The notes under the pieces were generated by a model. The model made no database searches. It was not told the DNA's origin and was given only the letters and a program-made list of their open reading frames with translations. From a virus (taxonomy: Duplodnaviria > Caudoviricetes), in IMG/VR virus record IMGVR_UViG_3300028392_000082, positions 1-53,747 of that record: a DNA stretch of 53,747 nucleotides, one strand, 5' to 3'. This document shows, one piece after another, positions 483 through 5,143 of this stretch (positions are counted from its first letter, which is position 1; every line of letters begins with the position of its first letter). Both the position numbers and the translations under genes were made by a program.

Positions 483-547
483 AACGTTTTATTTATAACC
501 TAAATGTAACAATTATGGAGAAGATGGAGAAATAAAAGTTTAAAGTA

Positions 548-883
548 AAGCTGTTGTTCTTGACTTATTTTTTATTTTTTGTTAATTAACTTTGATTCTA
601 ATTTGTCTAGTCGAGAATCCATCATGCTGTATATAGCTTGTTCTGATTCTGCTCGACTTCTGTGAACTTGTTCTATCTCTAAGGATAGTACTCTATTTGT
701 TTGAGCGTCTATTTCAAAGACGTCTCTATTGAGGTCTTCGATTCTTTTTTCTAACTTAATGGTCTTAACGAAGGCAATAACAGCAACTATCGCTAACGCG
801 ATAACCACCACTAGGCTCATCCCTAAAACGAATGATAGTGTTTCCATATTTTATTTCTCCTATATGTCAAAGAACAACAGCTT
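548..883. repeat. Long-range inverted repeat bracketing ORF 572-847
   Basis: AAGCTGTTGTTCTTGAC (548-564) is the reverse complement of GTCAAAGAACAACAGCTT (866-883) apart from a 1-nt bulge. Confidence 0.85.
572..847 (-). CDS. Single-TM coiled-coil membrane protein
   Basis: N-terminal hydrophobic helix followed by a coiled-coil-like tail. Confidence 0.75.
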   Translation of the reverse strand: METLSFVLGMSLVVVIALAIVAVIAFVKTIKLEKRIEDLNRDVFEIDAQTNRVLSLEIEQVHRSRAESEQAIYSMMDSRLDKLESKLINKK

Positions 884-884
884 G

Positions 885-1039
885 CTGTAGGGGAAGGATT
901 CGAACCTTCATGCAGCGATTCGATAAAAGACACATTGCTCGAGCTTGTGGTCAATCCATATCTTTTATCTATTTCGTTCTCTGCGCCCACGAGACGAGTG
1001 GGTGTGTATGCCGTGGCGTACGCCTTTCACCACCCTACA
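885..1039 (-). ncRNA. Oversized tRNA-like RNA (155 nt; GUC at the anticodon position, G73, hairpin in D-loop, 76-nt variable arm)
   Basis: Acceptor TGTAGGG/CCCTACA+G73; U8G9; D-stem GTG/CAC; anticodon arm CCCAC-TCGTCTC-GTGGG; T-arm GAAGG-TTCGAAT-CCTTC. Confidence 0.8.
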
Positions 1040-1044
1040 GTATA

Positions 1045-1293
1045 TTAATAGATTCCGTCCTCTTCGTCTATTTTAAAATCCAATTTATTCTGATCGATTC
1101 TAGCTTGTTCGGCTTCTTTGTACCACCTAATCCAAGTTAGAGATACATCGATAGGAGCCAATACCCAAGCCATTACTACAACCATAACAGCGTCTAACTC
1201 AGGAGAATTGTATTCTGTTCCTGTTTTTCTATATCTCTTGTTTAGTTGATAGAAACAATAGATAATGCAAATAAAATAATAACCTAATAACAT
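1045..1293 (-). CDS. Small two-TM membrane protein
   Basis: Two hydrophobic segments; fills the gap between two RNA genes. Confidence 0.65.
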   Translation of the reverse strand: MLLGYYFICIIYCFYQLNKRYRKTGTEYNSPELDAVMVVVMAWVLAPIDVSLTWIRWYKEAEQARIDQNKLDFKIDEEDGIY

Positions 1294-1310
1294 ATATTTA
1301 ATTTTTAAAG

Positions 1311-1381
1311 TTGCCCCTCAAGGATTCGAACCTCAACAAACTGTACCAAAAACAGTCGTACTACCGTTATACTAAAGGGCA
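1311..1381 (-). tRNA. tRNA-Gln(UUG)
   Basis: TGCCCTT acceptor, anticodon arm ACTGT-TTTTGGT-ACAGT, GGTTCGAATCC T-arm; CCA not encoded. Confidence 0.95.
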
Positions 1382-1386
1382 TAATA

Positions 1387-1487
1387 GTGTAGTAGGAGCT
1401 AGCATCCTTGTGGTTACTACACGTTTTATCCACTTTGGTAAAAGGCCTACTCTGTGCGCCCTGATCGCGGGAAGGGGAGTAAACGTC
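1387..1487 (-). ncRNA. Structured inter-tRNA element (multibranch plus hairpin)
   Basis: ACGTTT/AAACGT, ACTC/GAGT and CCCT/AGGG nested stems, then GTGTAGT/ACTACAC closing AGGA-TGCTAGC-TCCT. Confidence 0.45.
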
Positions 1488-1492
1488 TTTTG

Positions 1493-1579
1493 CGGAAAGA
1501 CAGGGATTCGAACCCCAGATACAGTTTCCCGTATTCTTGTTTTCAAGACAAGTGCATTAAGCCTCTCTGCCATCTTTCC
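1493..1579 (-). tRNA. tRNA-Ser(UGA)
   Basis: GGAAAGA/TCTTTCC acceptor, G73, CTTGT-CTTGAAA-ACAAG anticodon arm, long variable arm, TTCGAAT T-loop. Confidence 0.95.
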
Positions 1580-1584
1580 GTTAC

Positions 1585-1676
1585 GGTGGCGACAATACTT
1601 AGACTAGGGCTGCAGACCCTTGGTATTGCGTTTCTTCAACCACCAACCACCGGCTTAAGACGTCAATGCCAATGGT
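1585..1676 (-). ncRNA. Structured two-hairpin element upstream of tRNA-Ser
   Basis: ACCAUUGGC/GCCGGUGGU (G-U pairs valid only on minus strand); GGUGGU/GCCACC, GCAAUAC/GUAUUGU, AGGG/CCCU. Confidence 0.5.
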
Positions 1677-1782
1677 CCTGTTTATTTTATATAAGACGTT
1701 TACAGCTAACGTCTTTGTCGGTTTAAAATTATCGCAATATTAGTACTATGAATACTAATTTTTGACTTTTTTAAACCAATAA

Positions 1783-1901
1783 GGTGCCGGTGGAAGTATT
1801 TGTTTAACTTCACGGAGTCCTTTTCGGTCACTCCACCACTTCGAATCAGGTACGTCTCAATGCTACTCGTCAGTATACATTGTTTATTCCGCCACACCGG
1901 C
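1783..1901 (-). ncRNA. Type II tRNA-like RNA with D-loop hairpin insertion and non-canonical T-loop
   Basis: GCCGGTG/CACCGGC+A73+CC; GTGGCGGAAT start; variable arm GGAGT/ACTCC; T-stem GAAGT/ACTTC with 9-nt loop TAAACAAAT; weak anticodon arm around TCG. Confidence 0.7.
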
Positions 1902-1910
1902 ATATTAAGT

Positions 1911-2048
1911 TTAGGAAAGGCGAGGATGGTTCAGTGGACAACTCCTTTTATGATTGGCATTACTAATGATGGTTTAAACTCCGATATAGTCGGCCAATGC
2001 TTTTTGAGCGCCACCAACAGGCTAACCTATATCATTCCCCAATCAACC
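1911..2048 (-). ncRNA. Structured ncRNA motif, tandem copy 1
   Basis: GGTTGATTGG...TTAGTAATGCCAATCATAAAAGGAG-TTGTCCAC...CCTTTCCTAA; same scaffold as 2057-2162. Confidence 0.75.
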
Positions 2049-2056
2049 CAAAAAAT

Positions 2057-2162
2057 TTAGGAAAGCAGAAGATGGGTGCGTGGACATCTGCTTTTACGAT
2101 TGGCATTTCTAACCGCGAGGTATCCGCCCTTTCTACAGTTAAAGGATACATTCCAATCAACC
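2057..2162 (-). ncRNA. Structured ncRNA motif, tandem copy 2
   Basis: GGTTGATTGG...TTAGAAATGCCAATCGTAAAAGCAG-ATGTCCAC...CTGCTTTCCTAA; compensatory change relative to copy 1. Confidence 0.75.
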
Positions 2163-2171
2163 TTAATATTG

Positions 2172-2249
2172 AAACAAACTACCCACAATTTTTCAAAGTC
2201 GCCATCCAAGTCATTGCTCTGGTTAAACCAGCGGCAGGTAGTTGTGTTT
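2172..2249 (-). ncRNA. Structured element directly after the 3D-domain gene
   Basis: AAACA/TGTTT plus AACTACC/GGTAGTT closing stem; internal CTGGT-TTA-ACCAG hairpin. Confidence 0.45.
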
Positions 2250-2651
2250 TTATGCTTTGTACATTTTAATTCGATACAATTTGAATTGCTTGTCTTTTGG
2301 ATTGATAAGAATATCTATACGCTTTTTCCAACGTTTGTTCATTAGGTCTTTGACCACATAAACTCCGCTGTACTTTCCTGCGCCCACAATTCTTACCTTT
2401 TGTCCGAACTTAAATTTTTTATTTAAGTCCCTACTAACTGCTATAATTCTGTGCTTCTTCGGATTGTTTTCTGTTAACCTCATTCCGGTTGCAGTCACAT
2501 CTCCATTAGGATCGTTTTTAAATTCGTTCACCTTGTAAGTGGTGACAGTTACGAATTCAACGCTACTCTTTTTATGAGGCACGAACTTCTTACCCGCTTT
2601 TATGGGGCTTGAAGCCAATACACTTATTAAAATAATACTAATCCATTTCAT
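2250..2651 (-). CDS. Secreted 3D-domain (RlpA/MltA-like double-psi barrel) cell-wall protein
   Basis: Start moved to MKWISII because the longer ORF overlaps tmRNA; signal peptide; TATG, IIAVSRDL, VKDLMN and RIDIL motifs of the 3D family. Confidence 0.8.
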   Translation of the reverse strand: MKWISIILISVLASSPIKAGKKFVPHKKSSVEFVTVTTYKVNEFKNDPNGDVTATGMRLTENNPKKHRIIAVSRDLNKKFKFGQKVRIVGAGKYSGVYVVKDLMNKRWKKRIDILINPKDKQFKLYRIKMYKA

Positions 2652-2666
2652 AACCTTTATTTTTTG

Positions 2667-3069
2667 TGGAGCATATGGGACTCGAACCCATGTCTCCGTA
2701 ATGAACAATAATACCAACGTCTCACACGCTTAGATCTGTTTTTATTCTGATCAGTAAGGGTCGTATGGTTTTTGGTCCTTACGATATCCACCACTTGGTT
2801 TTATGACTACCAAGAAACTCCCAGAAGGAGCAGAGCTATAATACTGAGACTATAGCGGGGTTTTCACTTCTTTTTAAAGTCCCATGAGTGATACGGGATG
2901 CGACTAAGCAGCGTATGCGTACTCGTCAGCACCGATGAAACTCATAAGAGAATCAAAGGTCATAGTAGATAATTCTACAGTTATTGTTTCGTAAGGTTTT
3001 AAGGACTTATCTTACTTTGTCCGCGTGTGGTATTACCTCCGAATTACGGATCAATTCCAAGGATGCCCC
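2667..3069 (-). ncRNA. ssrA: tmRNA; tag (A)VELSTMTFDSLMSFIGADEYAYAA*
   Basis: GGGGCAT/ATGCTCC-A acceptor with G3-U70; GGTTCGAGTCC T-arm; ATAACT before the resume codon; tag ORF 2978-2904 ending YAA. Confidence 0.93.
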
Positions 3070-3079
3070 ATGTGAATAT

Positions 3080-3087
3080 ATAAATAT
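3080..3087 (-). promoter_or_regulatory. ATATTTAT putative phage promoter upstream of tmRNA
   Basis: Recurrent upstream motif, 10 nt before the tmRNA 5' end. Confidence 0.6.
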
Positions 3088-3094
3088 ACTAATT

Positions 3095-3352
3095 TTACGA
3101 GAATAGAATATCTGCCTCTTCTTCATCGAATCCATATTCTCCATCATGAAATTCAACTTCGAATAGATTGCCTACTTCTACATCGGTGTCTACAAATCTG
3201 TTCTTGTCAAAACAATTGTAAGGTTCAGGAGCGTCCAATTCCCAGAAAATATAATTTCCTTTTGAAGTGGTTGAGAACACTGTGTAGAATGCATCCTCTA
3301 CTAAAATACCGGTGTCGTCTGCTTTAATACATTTAACTTTTCTATAACTCAT
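3095..3352 (-). CDS. Hypothetical acidic protein
   Basis: 85 aa ORF, co-oriented. Confidence 0.7.
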   Translation of the reverse strand: MSYRKVKCIKADDTGILVEDAFYTVFSTTSKGNYIFWELDAPEPYNCFDKNRFVDTDVEVGNLFEVEFHDGEYGFDEEEADILFS

Positions 3353-3370
3353 AACTTATTAATTTAAAAT

Positions 3371-3397
3371 AAAAAGACCTTTCTTAATGTAGTCTTT
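3371..3397 (-). terminator. Possible intrinsic terminator
   Basis: AAAGAC/GTCTTT stem followed by a U-run on the minus strand. Confidence 0.35.
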
Positions 3398-3428
3398 GCA
3401 GGCGGAATTCCCCGACACCGTTACTTAA

Positions 3429-3644
3429 TTACTTTTGTGGTTGCTCTACTTTTGCGCGAGCTCCAGATCCACCGCCAATTGTTTTAGCTGTAGAATCTAC
3501 TGTAATCTCTGTTGAATCTGCTGCAATCTCTGTTGAATCTACTGTAGTTTTTGTAGAATCTGTTGTTGTTGTAGCAGAAGTGTTAGAAGTTCCGCAAGCC
3601 GTTAATACTAAAGCTGTAGCGAAAGCGATCATGATTTTTTTCAT
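3429..3644 (-). CDS. Small lipoprotein with Thr/Ser-rich DST repeats
   Basis: MKK signal with lipobox LTAC; repeated DST motifs. Confidence 0.8.
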   Translation of the reverse strand: MKKIMIAFATALVLTACGTSNTSATTTTDSTKTTVDSTEIAADSTEITVDSTAKTIGGGSGARAKVEQPQK

Positions 3645-3760: not shown

Positions 3761-5143
3761 TTATAAATTCAATTTGCTACCAATCATGAAAGATCTTATT
3801 GGTATACTTTGGTCTGCGGTGCTTACCATAATTTTAAAGTTAACATTCACTTTAAACTTTCTAGTGATTTTGAAGTCTGTAGCGAAACCAGTCAAGAATG
3901 TCAAATCTCTACTTCTTGTTTGGGCTCCATCTTTTAAAGAGATTCCCCATGGTGCGGCTATCATAAATAGATCTGGGGTTACTGTCTTTCTACCTACAGT
4001 TATGGGATACATGGCGAAGCTGATAATAGAAGGGGATAGACTAATTGATCCGCCTTGAATGAACGCAGTGTTAGCGCTTATATTATACCCTGTGATTAGC
4101 TTGTCTATTGGTTGGATGTAAGTGTAAGCTGGAAATATCATGTGATTAGAGAAGTCGGTGAAATACGTAGTACCGAAGTTGTGCATCGCTTCTAATTGAC
4201 CTCTATCATTCATTTGACTCTTTGTGTAACTTCCACCTACCGCTATTTTACTAAAGTCCAAGAATATGCTTGCGTTAGCACCAAAGTTGGACAATCCTGT
4301 CATTGAAGACTTGGAAACTCCCATATTCATAGTCGGTACTAGCTTTCTATTCGGTGCTTGCTCTGCTACACTCAAATCTGCAGAGAATATCATTGGATTT
4401 ATACTTGCCGCTTTTTTCTTTTCTTCTTTCTTTTTGTCTTCTTTCTTCTTCTCTTCTTTTTTCTCTTCAGATTTTTTTTCTTCTTTCTTTTCTTCTGATT
4501 TTGTCTCTTCTTTTTTCTCTTCAGATTTTGATTCAGATTTGCTCTCTGATTTTGTTTCAGACTTGGTCTCTGATTTTGTTTCTGTACTTGAGCTTTTGCT
4601 CTCTGAGCTTGAGCTTGACGACGAAGAGCCAGAAGACGACGACGATTGGGAGGAAGAGGAAGATGAAGACGAAGTTGGTGGAGGTGATGAAGATACCGCT
4701 GAAGTCGATGCAGTGGATGCACTTGATGACGCTGCACTTGATGCGCTCGAACTTGCTGCTGATGAGGCCGCAGAACTTGCCGCACTTGAAGCTGCAGAGC
4801 TTGCCGCCGAAGCAGCTGCTGATGCCGCCGCTTGAGTTGCCGCGTTTGCAGCTGTGGTCGCTATTATGGCCGTTGTTTGTTGAGATACTGGACATGGCGT
4901 TGCGAATATGGATTTGATCCATGCATCTACTGTGCCTGATGCAAAGTCTGCGTAAGTAAATAATCTAGATTTTCCCCTAACTATAACTAGAACTCCGGGA
5001 TAATTGGAAGCTATGGGAGCTATGAATGTATAAACCTTGCTATCGCATGGATCTACGTAAGTGTTAACAATATTTTGCCCTTTAGCTTTGAGCGCTAATA
5101 AGGACAAAACCGATATCGTAAACGCTACTATCCATTTTTTCAT
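3761..5143 (-). CDS. Secreted protein with Ala/Ser and Lys/Glu low-complexity linker and C-terminal beta-barrel-like domain
   Basis: Signal peptide; SSAA, ETKS and EEKK repeats; C-terminal amphipathic strands ending IGSKLNL. Confidence 0.7.
   Translation of the reverse strand: MKKWIVAFTISVLSLLALKAKGQNIVNTYVDPCDSKVYTFIAPIASNYPGVLVIVRGKSRLFTYADFASGTVDAWIKSIFATPCPVSQQTTAIIATTAANAATQAAASAAASAASSAASSAASSAASSAASSSASSAASSSASTASTSAVSSSPPPTSSSSSSSSQSSSSSGSSSSSSSSESKSSSTETKSETKSETKSESKSESKSEEKKEETKSEEKKEEKKSEEKKEEKKKEDKKKEEKKKAASINPMIFSADLSVAEQAPNRKLVPTMNMGVSKSSMTGLSNFGANASIFLDFSKIAVGGSYTKSQMNDRGQLEAMHNFGTTYFTDFSNHMIFPAYTYIQPIDKLITGYNISANTAFIQGGSISLSPSIISFAMYPITVGRKTVTPDLFMIAAPWGISLKDGAQTRSRDLTFLTGFATDFKITRKFKVNVNFKIMVSTADQSIPIRSFMIGSKLNL

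Follow-up and report, generated by a model that had tools for sequence, protein, structure and literature searches.

The stretch of DNA considered here, IMG/VR record IMGVR_UViG_3300028392_000082 (positions 1 to 53,747; Duplodnaviria, Caudoviricetes), is a viral contig of 53,747 bases that is rated 34% complete and is referred to below as the window. On its minus strand, between positions 860 and 3090, it carries an array of a transfer-messenger RNA (tmRNA), two transfer RNAs (tRNAs) and two small protein genes (Table 1). The spacers of this array encode small structured RNAs of no fewer than four or five families, which are conserved in many related contigs of freshwater phages, lie on the tRNA strand, stand head-to-tail with the tRNAs and show compensatory changes in their helices. 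An earlier examination of the letters alone (the sequence-only reading) had described a dense array of folded RNAs behind one upstream motif, with a tmRNA, a 3D-domain gene and nine consecutive RNA elements interrupted by a single small open reading frame (ORF). Most of this layout stood, with the exception of the 3D-domain label and the count of nine. With unit borders set by reading the minus strand, we delimited eight non-tRNA units (E1 to E8) and two tRNAs, and one of the eight, E5, is a weakly structured, A/T-rich linker.

The tmRNA was recovered by ARAGORN and by Rfam, the whole of model RF00023 (1-374) being matched, and two ordinary tRNAs and no more were called in the stretch by ARAGORN, also with introns allowed, and by Rfam. 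As had been described, one small ORF breaks the array, the linkers between units, as read from the sequence, are short and A/U-rich, and the array is richer in G+C than its surroundings (0.41-0.47 in most 300-nucleotide (nt) windows of the RNA part versus 0.26-0.38 in the flanks). The bias in G-U pairs likewise marks minus as the RNA strand; in E8, three positions have G-U or U-G as their most frequent pair (in 73, 67 and 85 of 85 distinct sequences). The non-tRNA elements proved to be conserved structured RNAs. None of their families is contained in Rfam 15, searches of the spacers at E ≤ 10 returning noise only (SpF41, Plastid-psbl-rps4, wcaG, sX4 and DUF2693 RNA).

Table 1. Features of the array, in minus-strand order; positions are those of the window.
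Feature	Position	Strand	Basis or remark
Promoter-like motif ATATTTAT	3080..3087	-	Sequence scan; 10 nt before tmRNA 5' end
tmRNA, tag ADEYAYAA (stop)	2664..3069	-	ARAGORN; Rfam RF00023, 61.1 bits (gathering score 47)
ORF, 133 amino acids	2250..2651	-	phrog_21574
E1, 74 nt	2174..2247	-	Alignment of relatives
E2	2056..2164	-	E2/E3 family, alignment A2
E3	1910..2049	-	E2/E3 family, paralogue
E4	1783..1901	-	tRNA-Leu-derived, alignment A3
E5	1690..1782	-	A/T-rich linker, two small hairpins
E6, ~100 nt	1581..1679	-	Alignment of relatives; abuts tRNA-Ser
tRNA-Ser (UGA), class II	1492..1579	-	ARAGORN; Rfam, 54.6 bits
E7	1382..1491	-	Conserved core 1437-1386
tRNA-Gln (UUG)	1310..1381	-	ARAGORN; Rfam, 56.9 bits
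ORF, 82 amino acids	1045..1293	-	Conserved inside tRNA arrays
E8, ~158 nt	882..1039	-	Covariance model R1, 165.8 bits

Conservation and spread of the array RNAs

A lack of conservation of the non-tRNA elements in relatives had been named beforehand as the finding that would count against the sequence-only reading; the elements clearly recur in relatives and covary. Among GenBank phages no relative was found, a blastn search with 860-3090 returning 26 records in which the match was confined to the tRNA-Ser or tRNA-Gln part. In IMG/VR, 47 loci were fetched through the two proteins of the array (6 via the 133-amino-acid and 41 via the 82-amino-acid protein), a set chosen without recourse to the RNA motifs; by nhmmer, 25 of them contain a full-length E8, and E2/E3 gave 26 matches. 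Pattern scans of IMG/VR detected the E8 core in at least 120 contigs and the E2/E3 core also in at least 120. Over the 272 loci scanned (numbered with the prefix L), nhmmer matches amounted to 120 for E8, 163 for E2/E3, 29 for E4, 22 for E1, 14 for E5, 14 for E6 and 10 for E7, counts that show spread and not independent frequency, since L049-L273 were fetched by the RNA motifs themselves. In loci with tRNAs, the strand of the elements is that of the nearest tRNA (E8 87/87, E2/E3 149/149, E4 29/29, and likewise for the smaller families). The spacers of the window are 88-100% identical in close relatives, and the flanking proteins just 47-93%.

The arrangement is shared as well. The order of units in L008, with the number of nt between them, is tmRNA, p133, tRNA-Met -1- E1 -9- E2 -8- E3 -4- E4 -2- E5 -3- E6 -1- tRNA-Thr -141- tRNA-Ser -427- tRNA-Gln, p82, E8; compared with this order, the window therefore holds the same island minus tRNA-Met and tRNA-Thr, which the closest relative carries, plus E7, inserted between tRNA-Ser and tRNA-Gln. 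Gaps of 0-9 nt, like those between true tRNAs, separate the units, and the same units are found elsewhere between other tRNAs, for example tRNA-Tyr -0- E4 -3- tRNA-Met in L039 and tRNA-Trp -1- E2/3 -6- tRNA-Tyr in L036. The islands of relatives contain up to 22 tRNAs, often together with a tmRNA, and GOLLD RNA (Rfam RF02032) was detected at 268-314 bits in 4 of the 14 relatives' loci searched (L023:2119-2533, L039:6840-7248, L063:5418-5825 and L142:6933-7342), sitting in L023 between tmRNA/tRNA-Met and tRNA-Asn. In the window, no GOLLD was found at the gathering score over 53.7 kb, and none at E ≤ 10 in 700-3300. Overall, the window array is a trimmed example of a kind of tRNA/tmRNA island that is widespread in phages and in some cases includes GOLLD. 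Proposed as an undescribed system, it does hold RNA families without an Rfam entry, but it is a reduced copy of that island type and not self-contained. A survey of 2023 is described as predicting 10,006 structured RNAs in IMG/VR, tRNA-like ones among them (PMC10690425); the literature searched, which did not cover the candidate lists in the supplements of that survey, gave no account of the present families.

Two observations concern the islands of relatives themselves. Several of the tags predicted for their tmRNAs (L014, L023, L028, L029, L031, L038 and L047) are unusually long, such as DEMSTMTFDSLMEFVGANEYALAA and DNVYNTMEIAGVLATSKVAA, the tag of the window having 8 residues. In large arrays ARAGORN also called tRNA-Ser with anticodon ACU and tRNA-Arg with ACG (L017:843-928, L019:1213-1298, L023:3601-3686); A34 without modification would be an uncommon feature for tRNA-Ser.

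The core of the E2/E3 family was recovered by a strict pattern in 147 instances, 103 of them distinct, in the loci scanned (alignment A2). An invariant helix, GAUUGG/CCAAUC, encloses a variable domain of 15-102 nt that has helices and sub-classes of its own; 3' of the helix follow RUAAAA and then a hairpin with a 17-nt loop and invariant GUCCAC and CCAUC. Among 48 distinct versions of this 3' hairpin stem, 92.9% of cells are paired as opposed to 72.1% with shuffled partners, and the stem carries compensatory changes. The outer helix, P0, is weak: past GG/CC, one pair is kept in 26/28 and the next two in 15/28 each. The invariant loop nucleotides point to a specific partner or a tertiary fold; neither tRNA likeness nor palindromic tips were found in this family. 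E3, with an inner domain longer than that of E2, is a paralogous tandem member, and tandem E2-E3 pairs are also present in L003, L008 and L047. The median distance of the family from a tRNA is 5 nt, frequently with the element directly 5' of tRNA-Tyr (41), tRNA-Thr (16) or tRNA-Glu (11).

The remaining small elements are represented by fewer sequences. E1 is 93-97% identical in 9 loci, where it directly follows tRNA-Met or tRNA-Glu; it has a closing stem of 7-9 base pairs (bp) and an invariant core, with one or two compensatory changes discernible by eye among 13 distinct sequences. E5 (88-97% identical in 9 loci, 6 distinct sequences) forms two small hairpins and may be a mere linker or spacer, or an internal promoter. 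E6, with 8 distinct sequences, always stands 1-2 nt before tRNA-Ser or tRNA-Thr and has two hairpin loops with the palindromes GACGUC and, in the second, CUGCAG. The conserved 52-nt core of E7 occurs in 10 loci (9 distinct sequences), mostly between tRNA-Asp and tRNA-Gly. Its helix GUGG/CCAC changes to GCAG/CUGC, as seen by eye, and a second helix encloses one strand of the first in a pseudoknot-like manner, with a 7-nt loop that holds GCUAGC. For the 5' half of E7 (1491-1438), no relatives were found among the loci scanned.

tRNA-like folds and self-complementary tips

E8 has the shape of a tRNA with a giant arm. In an alignment of 22 sequences (A1), which with a mean column identity of 72% is not near-clonal, a cloverleaf of 41 pairs was obtained, and compensatory double changes are seen at 27 of the pairs. 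From A1 the covariance model R1 was derived; in a search of 100 sources it gave 96 matches with scores of 128-179 bits (E ≤ 1e-34). Across 85 distinct sequences, in an alignment fitted to the structure of the model (A5), 99.1% of cells are paired versus 81.3% in shuffles, none of the 500 shuffles reaching as high a value; double changes are seen in 30 of the 41 pairs, with 634 cells changed on both sides. When the partners were slid by 1-3 columns as a control, 42-55% of cells were paired.

The body of E8 begins with an acceptor stem of 7-8 bp and U8; the D stem that follows measures 3 bp, and its loop contains GG. In the window, the D loop also carries a palindromic hairpin, GGCGUACGCC (1024-1015). 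The arm at the anticodon position has a 5-bp stem and a 7-nt loop (UCGUCUC in the window), and an arm of ~80 nt, with the palindrome GCUCGAGC (944-937) at its apex in the window, occupies the position of the variable arm. The T arm is canonical (GGUUCGAAUCC in the window), with a T loop of UUCGAAU in 48/85; the discriminator G73 is followed by CAA, so that, as in the true tRNAs of the window, a complete CCA is not encoded, and G2:C71 is kept in 83/85. The commonest D-loop insert in A5 (~25 nt; for example in L009, L016, L038 and L039) is non-palindromic, and its loop repeats the UGUCUC of the anticodon-like loop, such that the hexamer is displayed twice in many E8.

The anticodon-like loop is CUGUCUC in 42 sequences, UCGUCUC in 23 and a near variant in the others. 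GUC is invariant, each of the four bases occurs at position 33, and 83/85 have U or C at position 37; E8 does not show the combination of a 7-nt loop, U33 and a purine at 37 that decoding calls for. The tRNA-Asp of these phages has CUGUCAC on CCNCC/GGNGG, and the commonest E8 has CUGUCUC on CCCUC/GGGGG. The likeness in loop and stem, together with the altered positions 33 and 37, therefore suggests a tRNA-Asp-like arm disabled for decoding. E8 is a tRNA derivative: its body is of class II, its anticodon arm resembles that of tRNA-Asp, the position of the variable arm is taken by a giant arm, and decoding features have been lost.

An acceptor stem, D arm, T arm and discriminator were found in both E8 and E4 (RNAalifold, pair counts), and yet neither element (158 and 119 nt, respectively) matches the tRNA model RF00005 at E ≤ 10 or is called by ARAGORN in default mode. 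With introns allowed, ARAGORN reports E8 as tRNA-Ser(cga) with an 84-nt intron, a call that we rejected, since it ignores the conserved hairpin and the long arm. Pairing of CGUCUC in the E8 loop with GAGACG of E4 was also considered; it holds in the window and fails in L009. Over its full length, R1 cross-matches the class II tRNAs tRNA-Leu and tRNA-Ser at 30-51 bits. It also matches E4 of L039 and, over the whole length and at 28-49 bits, a dozen other array elements of relatives, of 113-165 nt (L097: 7678-7832, 6138-6264, 7942-8054, 6473-6618 and 5125-5278, minus strand; L022:4216-4361 and 4489-4653; L110:5864-5978 and 4905-5054; L113:143-269; L015:1436-1557; L076:2667-2813), which may represent additional families of oversized tRNA-like RNAs. 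In bacterial genomes, hits of an E8 motif scan were mostly due to chance: of the 100 loci screened with R1 (~20 further loci lay outside the screen), two contain a true E8, both on contigs below 4 kb binned into metagenome-assembled genomes of Bacteroidota. This outcome lends weak support to a Bacteroidota host and to an essentially viral family.

E4 was likewise folded into a cloverleaf by RNAalifold (A3; 20 distinct sequences aligned), with double changes in 8 of 35 pairs. In the acceptor helix they affect 3 of 8 pairs, the helix occurring as GCCGGUG/CACCGGC, GCCGGAG/CUCCGGC, GCCGAAG/CUUCGGC and GCCGGUU/AACCGGC. The element comprises a 7-bp acceptor stem, a D arm UGGCGGAAU...GACG, a long variable arm and A73 followed by CC. 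The tRNA-Leu of these phages align with E4 in the D arm, in CGUG before the T stem, in the variable arm and in A73, and E4 derives from tRNA-Leu with loss of decoding features. It departs from a functional tRNA in three respects: an optional hairpin is inserted in the D loop; the anticodon arm is cut to 3 pairs with a loop of 11-13 nt, which bears the palindrome UUCGAA in the window and lacks the decoding combination described above for E8; and the T loop is not UUCRANY. Identity of E4 with manA RNA (RF01745) was examined and rejected, the match reaching 15.9 bits against a gathering score of 55.2 with a weak alignment over the whole model. In the records of 5 relatives, the manA model did not match the relatives of E4, its sole match (7.1 bits) lying elsewhere, and among control genomes 4/14 gave matches at E ≤ 10.

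Several of these RNAs end in loops that are self-complementary. A hairpin requires a self-complementary stem, not a self-complementary loop. At the apex of the E8 arm, a perfect palindrome of 8-12 nt is present in 47/50 distinct sequences (shuffles 5%), in 18 different versions that include GCUUGCAAGC, GCCGGCCGGC, UCCGGCCGGA, GCUCGCGAGC and GCAUGCAUGC in addition to that of the window. The variable arms of class II tRNAs in the same arrays served as a natural control: a palindrome of at least 8 nt was found in 3 of 213 distinct sequences, and a self-complementary loop in 3 of 165 predicted loops of even length. The optional D-loop hairpin of one E8 sub-class is palindromic in 13/46 (shuffles 5%), with GCGUACGC, GGUGUACACC and GCUCUAGAGC besides the window version. 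Similarly, the segment at the anticodon position of E4 contains a palindrome of at least 6 nt in 13/15 (UUCGAA, UCUAGA, UUCUAGAA, UCCGGA, ACUAGU; shuffles 22.5%), one of the 13 being the D-loop insert of L039 (GGTGGCCACC / GGUGGCCACC), for which the extraction matched an earlier AGACG. The E7 loop is palindromic in 8/8 (GCUAGC, GGUACC, GAUAUC; shuffles 17.8%) and the first loop of E6 in 3/3 distinct types (GACGUC, GAUAUC, TTGATATCAA / UUGAUAUCAA; shuffles 23.3%). We relied on such position-specific counts, since the longest palindrome of a whole element carries no information: a length of 8 nt is attained in 32-47% of shuffled sequences of 100-160 nt.

The tip variants change in pairs so as to keep self-complementarity, as from UUCGAA to UCCGGA or from UCUAGA to ACUAGU, and within the window each palindrome differs from all others. 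Covarying self-complementary loops of the type known from OLE, GOLLD and ROOL were found in E8, E4, E7 and E6; palindrome-to-palindrome covariation is described as the evidence used for symmetric kissing loops in OLE and GOLLD (PMC12286853). For isolated tips, the predicted energies are 0 to -2.6 kcal/mol for the hairpin versus -4.1 to -24.1 kcal/mol for the self-duplex. For whole molecules, RNAcofold predicts differences between the dimer and its monomers of -5.5 to -16.2 kcal/mol for the E elements and of -10.3 and -15.7 kcal/mol for the true tRNAs. As the tips stay self-complementary while their sequence changes, we hypothesize that E4, E6, E7 and E8 self-associate via these tips.

Transcription, cassettes and protein genes

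The array is, as had been claimed, a dense set of RNA genes on a single strand behind one promoter-like motif. The motif ATATTTAT occurs 16 times in the window, each time on the minus strand (at 3087, 7575, 10547, 11801, 21798, 22908, 29063, 33949, 34160, 45161, 46226, 46821, 49080, 49362, 50179 and 52479), where 6.9 copies are expected on both strands together and 16 were reached in 1 of 100 shuffles. Several copies are intergenic, placed after a hairpin with a T run or 20-35 nt ahead of start codons. Its confinement to the gene strand, with several copies intergenic, makes the motif a fair promoter candidate for this phage. Terminator-like sites are no commoner than expected by chance (3 found in 500-3500 versus 2.2 expected); the minus strand has two of them, one within the tmRNA and the other in the T arm of tRNA-Ser.

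Parts of the stretch occur in 20 public runs of freshwater, lake-water, riverine or unspecified metagenomes, six of them RNA libraries. The highest summed contig depths are those of the tmRNA (up to 88) and, in one RNA run, of E2 (45-58), with protein genes at ~2-6. One metatranscriptome contig matches 2057-2167 exactly (111 nt, E2), and further contigs match E3-E4, E6 and part of E8 without a mismatch; many other parts of the stretch are reached by none of these contigs. Two variant contigs were also seen, in one of which 12 nt replace 882-1045 (E8) and in the other 1716 is joined to 2057 (E2 to the end of E5). Together with the differing neighbors of the elements among relatives, these variants therefore indicate that units are gained and lost as whole cassettes.

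The transcript of the array probably also carries protein genes. The first of these had been labeled as a 3D-domain gene, which could not be sustained: no Pfam family, and hence no 3D domain (PF06725), was matched at E ≤ 0.1 or E ≤ 10, no relative was found in PDB, and the sole match is phrog_21574 (E 4e-21), a family whose function is unknown. Its 133-amino-acid product, with relatives in six IMG/VR loci, has an N-terminus that reads by eye as hydrophobic and may be a small secreted-type protein; a structure model was unusable, at a predicted local distance difference test (pLDDT) score of 49. The 82-amino-acid product, a putative membrane protein as read by eye, matches no Pfam or PHROG family. 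It has relatives of 55-93% identity in 41 IMG/VR loci (L008-L048), nearly all within tRNA arrays, where the gene is often directly 5' of tRNA-Ser or E8.

Just downstream of E8, a sub-threshold match to DUF2693 RNA (774-875, minus strand; 19.6 bits against a gathering score of 81.3) spans the start of a 91-amino-acid ORF and consists mainly of GUUCUUUGACAUAU and an A-rich run. Beyond the other end of the array, an ORF of 460 amino acids (3761-5143, minus strand) encodes a hydrophobic N-terminus, a long low-complexity stretch of Ser and Ala and then a middle part rich in Lys, Glu and Ser.

Interpretation and likeness to known systems

The account that we favor, and hold with moderate confidence, is that of a pared-down tRNA/tmRNA island in which the spacers are structured-RNA genes, the units would be released from a common transcript, and self-pairing and tRNA mimicry are proposed as modes of action. 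The array would be transcribed as one precursor from the ATATTTAT site. Its units would be freed by the enzymes that mature tRNA and tmRNA (RNase P at the 5' side, RNase Z or exonucleases at the 3' side), to which E4 and E8 would present their own acceptor/T-arm helix. Once free, E4, E6, E7 and E8 could pair with their own copies via the tips and form dimers or larger RNA-only assemblies, in the manner of small GOLLD, ROOL or manA. The likeliest role, as a guess, would be that of stable tRNA mimics that engage host tRNA-binding factors such as processing, modification or tRNA-cleaving defense enzymes.

A number of points weigh against this account. RNase P and RNase Z processing is inferred from shape and spacing alone. 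The contig depths give a weak hint that the array RNAs are abundant or discrete, as assembled contigs show neither ends nor strand and may hold DNA. Structures of E1, E5 and E6 are weakly supported, by close relatives only and by 6-13 distinct sequences, and the alignment of 85 E8 sequences, being fitted to the structure of the model, leans towards the R1 fold, with which a MAFFT-based fold agrees. Counts in the motif-fetched loci tell of the spread of the families and not of their independent frequency. The predicted dimer energies of whole molecules fail to separate E elements from ordinary tRNAs, and palindromic tips could arise from another cause, such as a site for a dimeric protein or something acting on DNA. 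Presence and absence of units as cassettes shows that no single element is essential. Finally, no link of the E RNAs to defense, counter-defense or translation was found; the present data lend no support to the translation control or anti-defense suggested in the sequence-only reading, nor do they speak against it.

A bolder extension, which we offer tentatively and which is on balance doubtful, sees in E4, E6, E7 and E8, and in further oversized tRNA-like units of related arrays, a concealed group of small RNAs that share a tRNA chassis and assemble with themselves. Host RNase P, RNase Z and CCA enzymes would excise the units, and one or two orthogonal tips per molecule would zip copies into dimers, rings or cages. 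E8 would then act as a multivalent bait, displaying many tRNA-Asp-like anticodon arms to an enzyme by which anticodon loops with GUN are read or cut, and the units would correspond, in miniature and modular form, to the GOLLD cages of the same islands.

Several other explanations have to be weighed against that of a pared-down island of RNA genes. The elements could be cis-acting parts of the tRNA precursor (leaders, trailers, punctuation, nuclease shields or internal promoters) that are degraded once the tRNAs have been released, which we consider unlikely. The short distance of E2/E3 from tRNAs and their frequent position 5' of tRNA-Tyr, tRNA-Thr and tRNA-Glu, the constant place of E6 immediately before tRNA-Ser or tRNA-Thr, the poorly structured, A/T-rich E5 and the coming and going of cassettes all fit such a role. 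However, a leader needs no 100-160 nt with invariant loops, tRNA-like folds in E4 and E8 and covarying tips; the same E2/E3 core precedes at least 7 tRNA species; and E8 lies mostly after a protein gene or 58-409 nt from tRNA-Ser, not ahead of a tRNA. The contig depths of the E2 family, which resemble those of the tmRNA in one RNA run, hint weakly in the same direction.

It is also conceivable, with a low probability, that E8 or E4 or both are still charged, E8 by seryl-tRNA synthetase and E4 by leucyl-tRNA synthetase, and serve in amino acid delivery or as a synthetase sponge. The former enzyme reads the long variable arm and G73, and the latter A73 and the D arm. E8 has kept G73, G2:C71, the T loop and an arm at the variable position, E4 has kept A73-CC and the D arm of tRNA-Leu, and the absence of a complete CCA from both is shared with the true tRNAs of the window. 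On the other hand, the E8 arm exceeds the variable arms known in nature about fourfold in length, inserts are frequent in the D loop of E8, and the T loop of E4 is non-canonical. Genes for a CCA-adding enzyme were not found in the 3 records searched (the window and two relatives, one of them rated 100% complete); a host enzyme could serve.

A third possibility, rather less probable still, is that the features act at the level of DNA, as mobile or recombination cassettes or as sites for dimeric proteins such as recombinases, homing enzymes or regulators. Cassettes with sharp borders and changing neighbors, together with perfect palindromes of the kind typical of protein sites on DNA, would be expected in this case. 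But a protein site would keep its sequence, and the E8 apex keeps self-complementarity alone through 18 palindromes; G-U pairs are frequent and strand-specific, and the elements are without exception oriented like the tRNAs. No target-site duplications or terminal inverted repeats were noticed, no dedicated search for them having been made. That the spacers are decaying tRNA pseudogenes and neutral filler of an eroded larger array, as the missing tRNA-Met and tRNA-Thr of L008, the defective anticodon loops of E4 and E8 with their tRNA ancestry and the intron-bearing tRNA-Ser call might suggest, can practically be dismissed, being already contradicted by the helix pairing kept in E8 through hundreds of double changes, by invariant loop motifs in more than 100 contigs, by the many perfect palindromes at one E8 site and by the spacers, whose conservation exceeds that of the flanking proteins.

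The usual annotation of a phage tRNA island shows tRNAs with empty spacers; here the spacers hold several RNA families as conserved as the tRNAs, a warning that tRNA counts and "intergenic" fractions of phage genomes are systematically misread. In E4 and E8 we see a tRNA gene rebuilt, with the parts read in processing kept, the decoding loop lost and arms with self-pairing tips added. If the tips do self-associate, natural RNA-only assemblies would extend from GOLLD, ROOL, OLE and manA to small RNAs that can be synthesized, which would offer a tractable route to the role of such assemblies during infection.

Close structural parallels are class II tRNAs (Leu, Ser, Tyr) and the tRNA-like domain of tmRNA, which share with E8 and E4 the 7-bp acceptor stem, U8, a D stem of 3 bp with a GG-bearing loop, an extra arm that lies between anticodon and T arms, the T arm itself and the discriminator base. 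E8 and E4 differ in their length of 119-160 nt, in the lack of a U33/purine-37 frame and in being unseen by the Rfam tRNA model. The ends of YrlA RNA form a separate Ro-binding stem, unlike those of E4 and E8, which form the plain acceptor stem itself. Y RNAs of the YrlA type are described as RNAs of ~100-150 nt with a tRNA-like T arm, an acceptor-like stem and Ro60/Rsr as partner, and E4 and E8 resemble them in being non-coding with such a T arm and stem (PMC4201824). Ro60/TROVE (PF05731) was found in none of 3 records (the window, G005, which is rated 100% complete, and G002), with Deinococcus and Bacteroides controls positive; Ro60 may be host-encoded.

Phage T4 is reported to make two small stable RNAs of unknown role, RNAC and RNAD, from its tRNA region, and as small RNAs of a phage tRNA cluster these resemble the E units (PMC3014915). 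Compared by description only, T4 has two such RNAs and the present phages several families in varying combinations. RNAs below 200 nt, manA among them, are reported to form trimers, decamers and a 60-mer via loop-loop contacts, with manA (RF01745), found in cyanophages and Photobacterium, forming cages of 10 to 60 subunits through kissing loops (bioRxiv 10.64898/2026.07.01.735769). E4 is likewise shorter than 200 nt, phage-associated and made of several hairpins, and shares with manA GUG.C.GAAUAAAC and a 3' hairpin by the closing helix; manA is described as an element of the 5' untranslated region, whereas E4 is a unit of a tRNA array. Finally, GOLLD and ROOL are reported to sit near phage tRNA islands (PMC5737381, PMC12286853), the same genomic niche as that of the E units, and the function is unknown for both groups. 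These RNA-only homo-oligomeric cages measure 580 to more than 800 nt and the E units 52-160 nt; neither is matched in the window by sequence or by model, the fold underlying E4 and E8 is that of a tRNA, and oligomerization of the E units is a prediction. Relative to the structured RNAs known from phage tRNA islands, the new features are the design on a tRNA chassis and the covarying palindromic tips.

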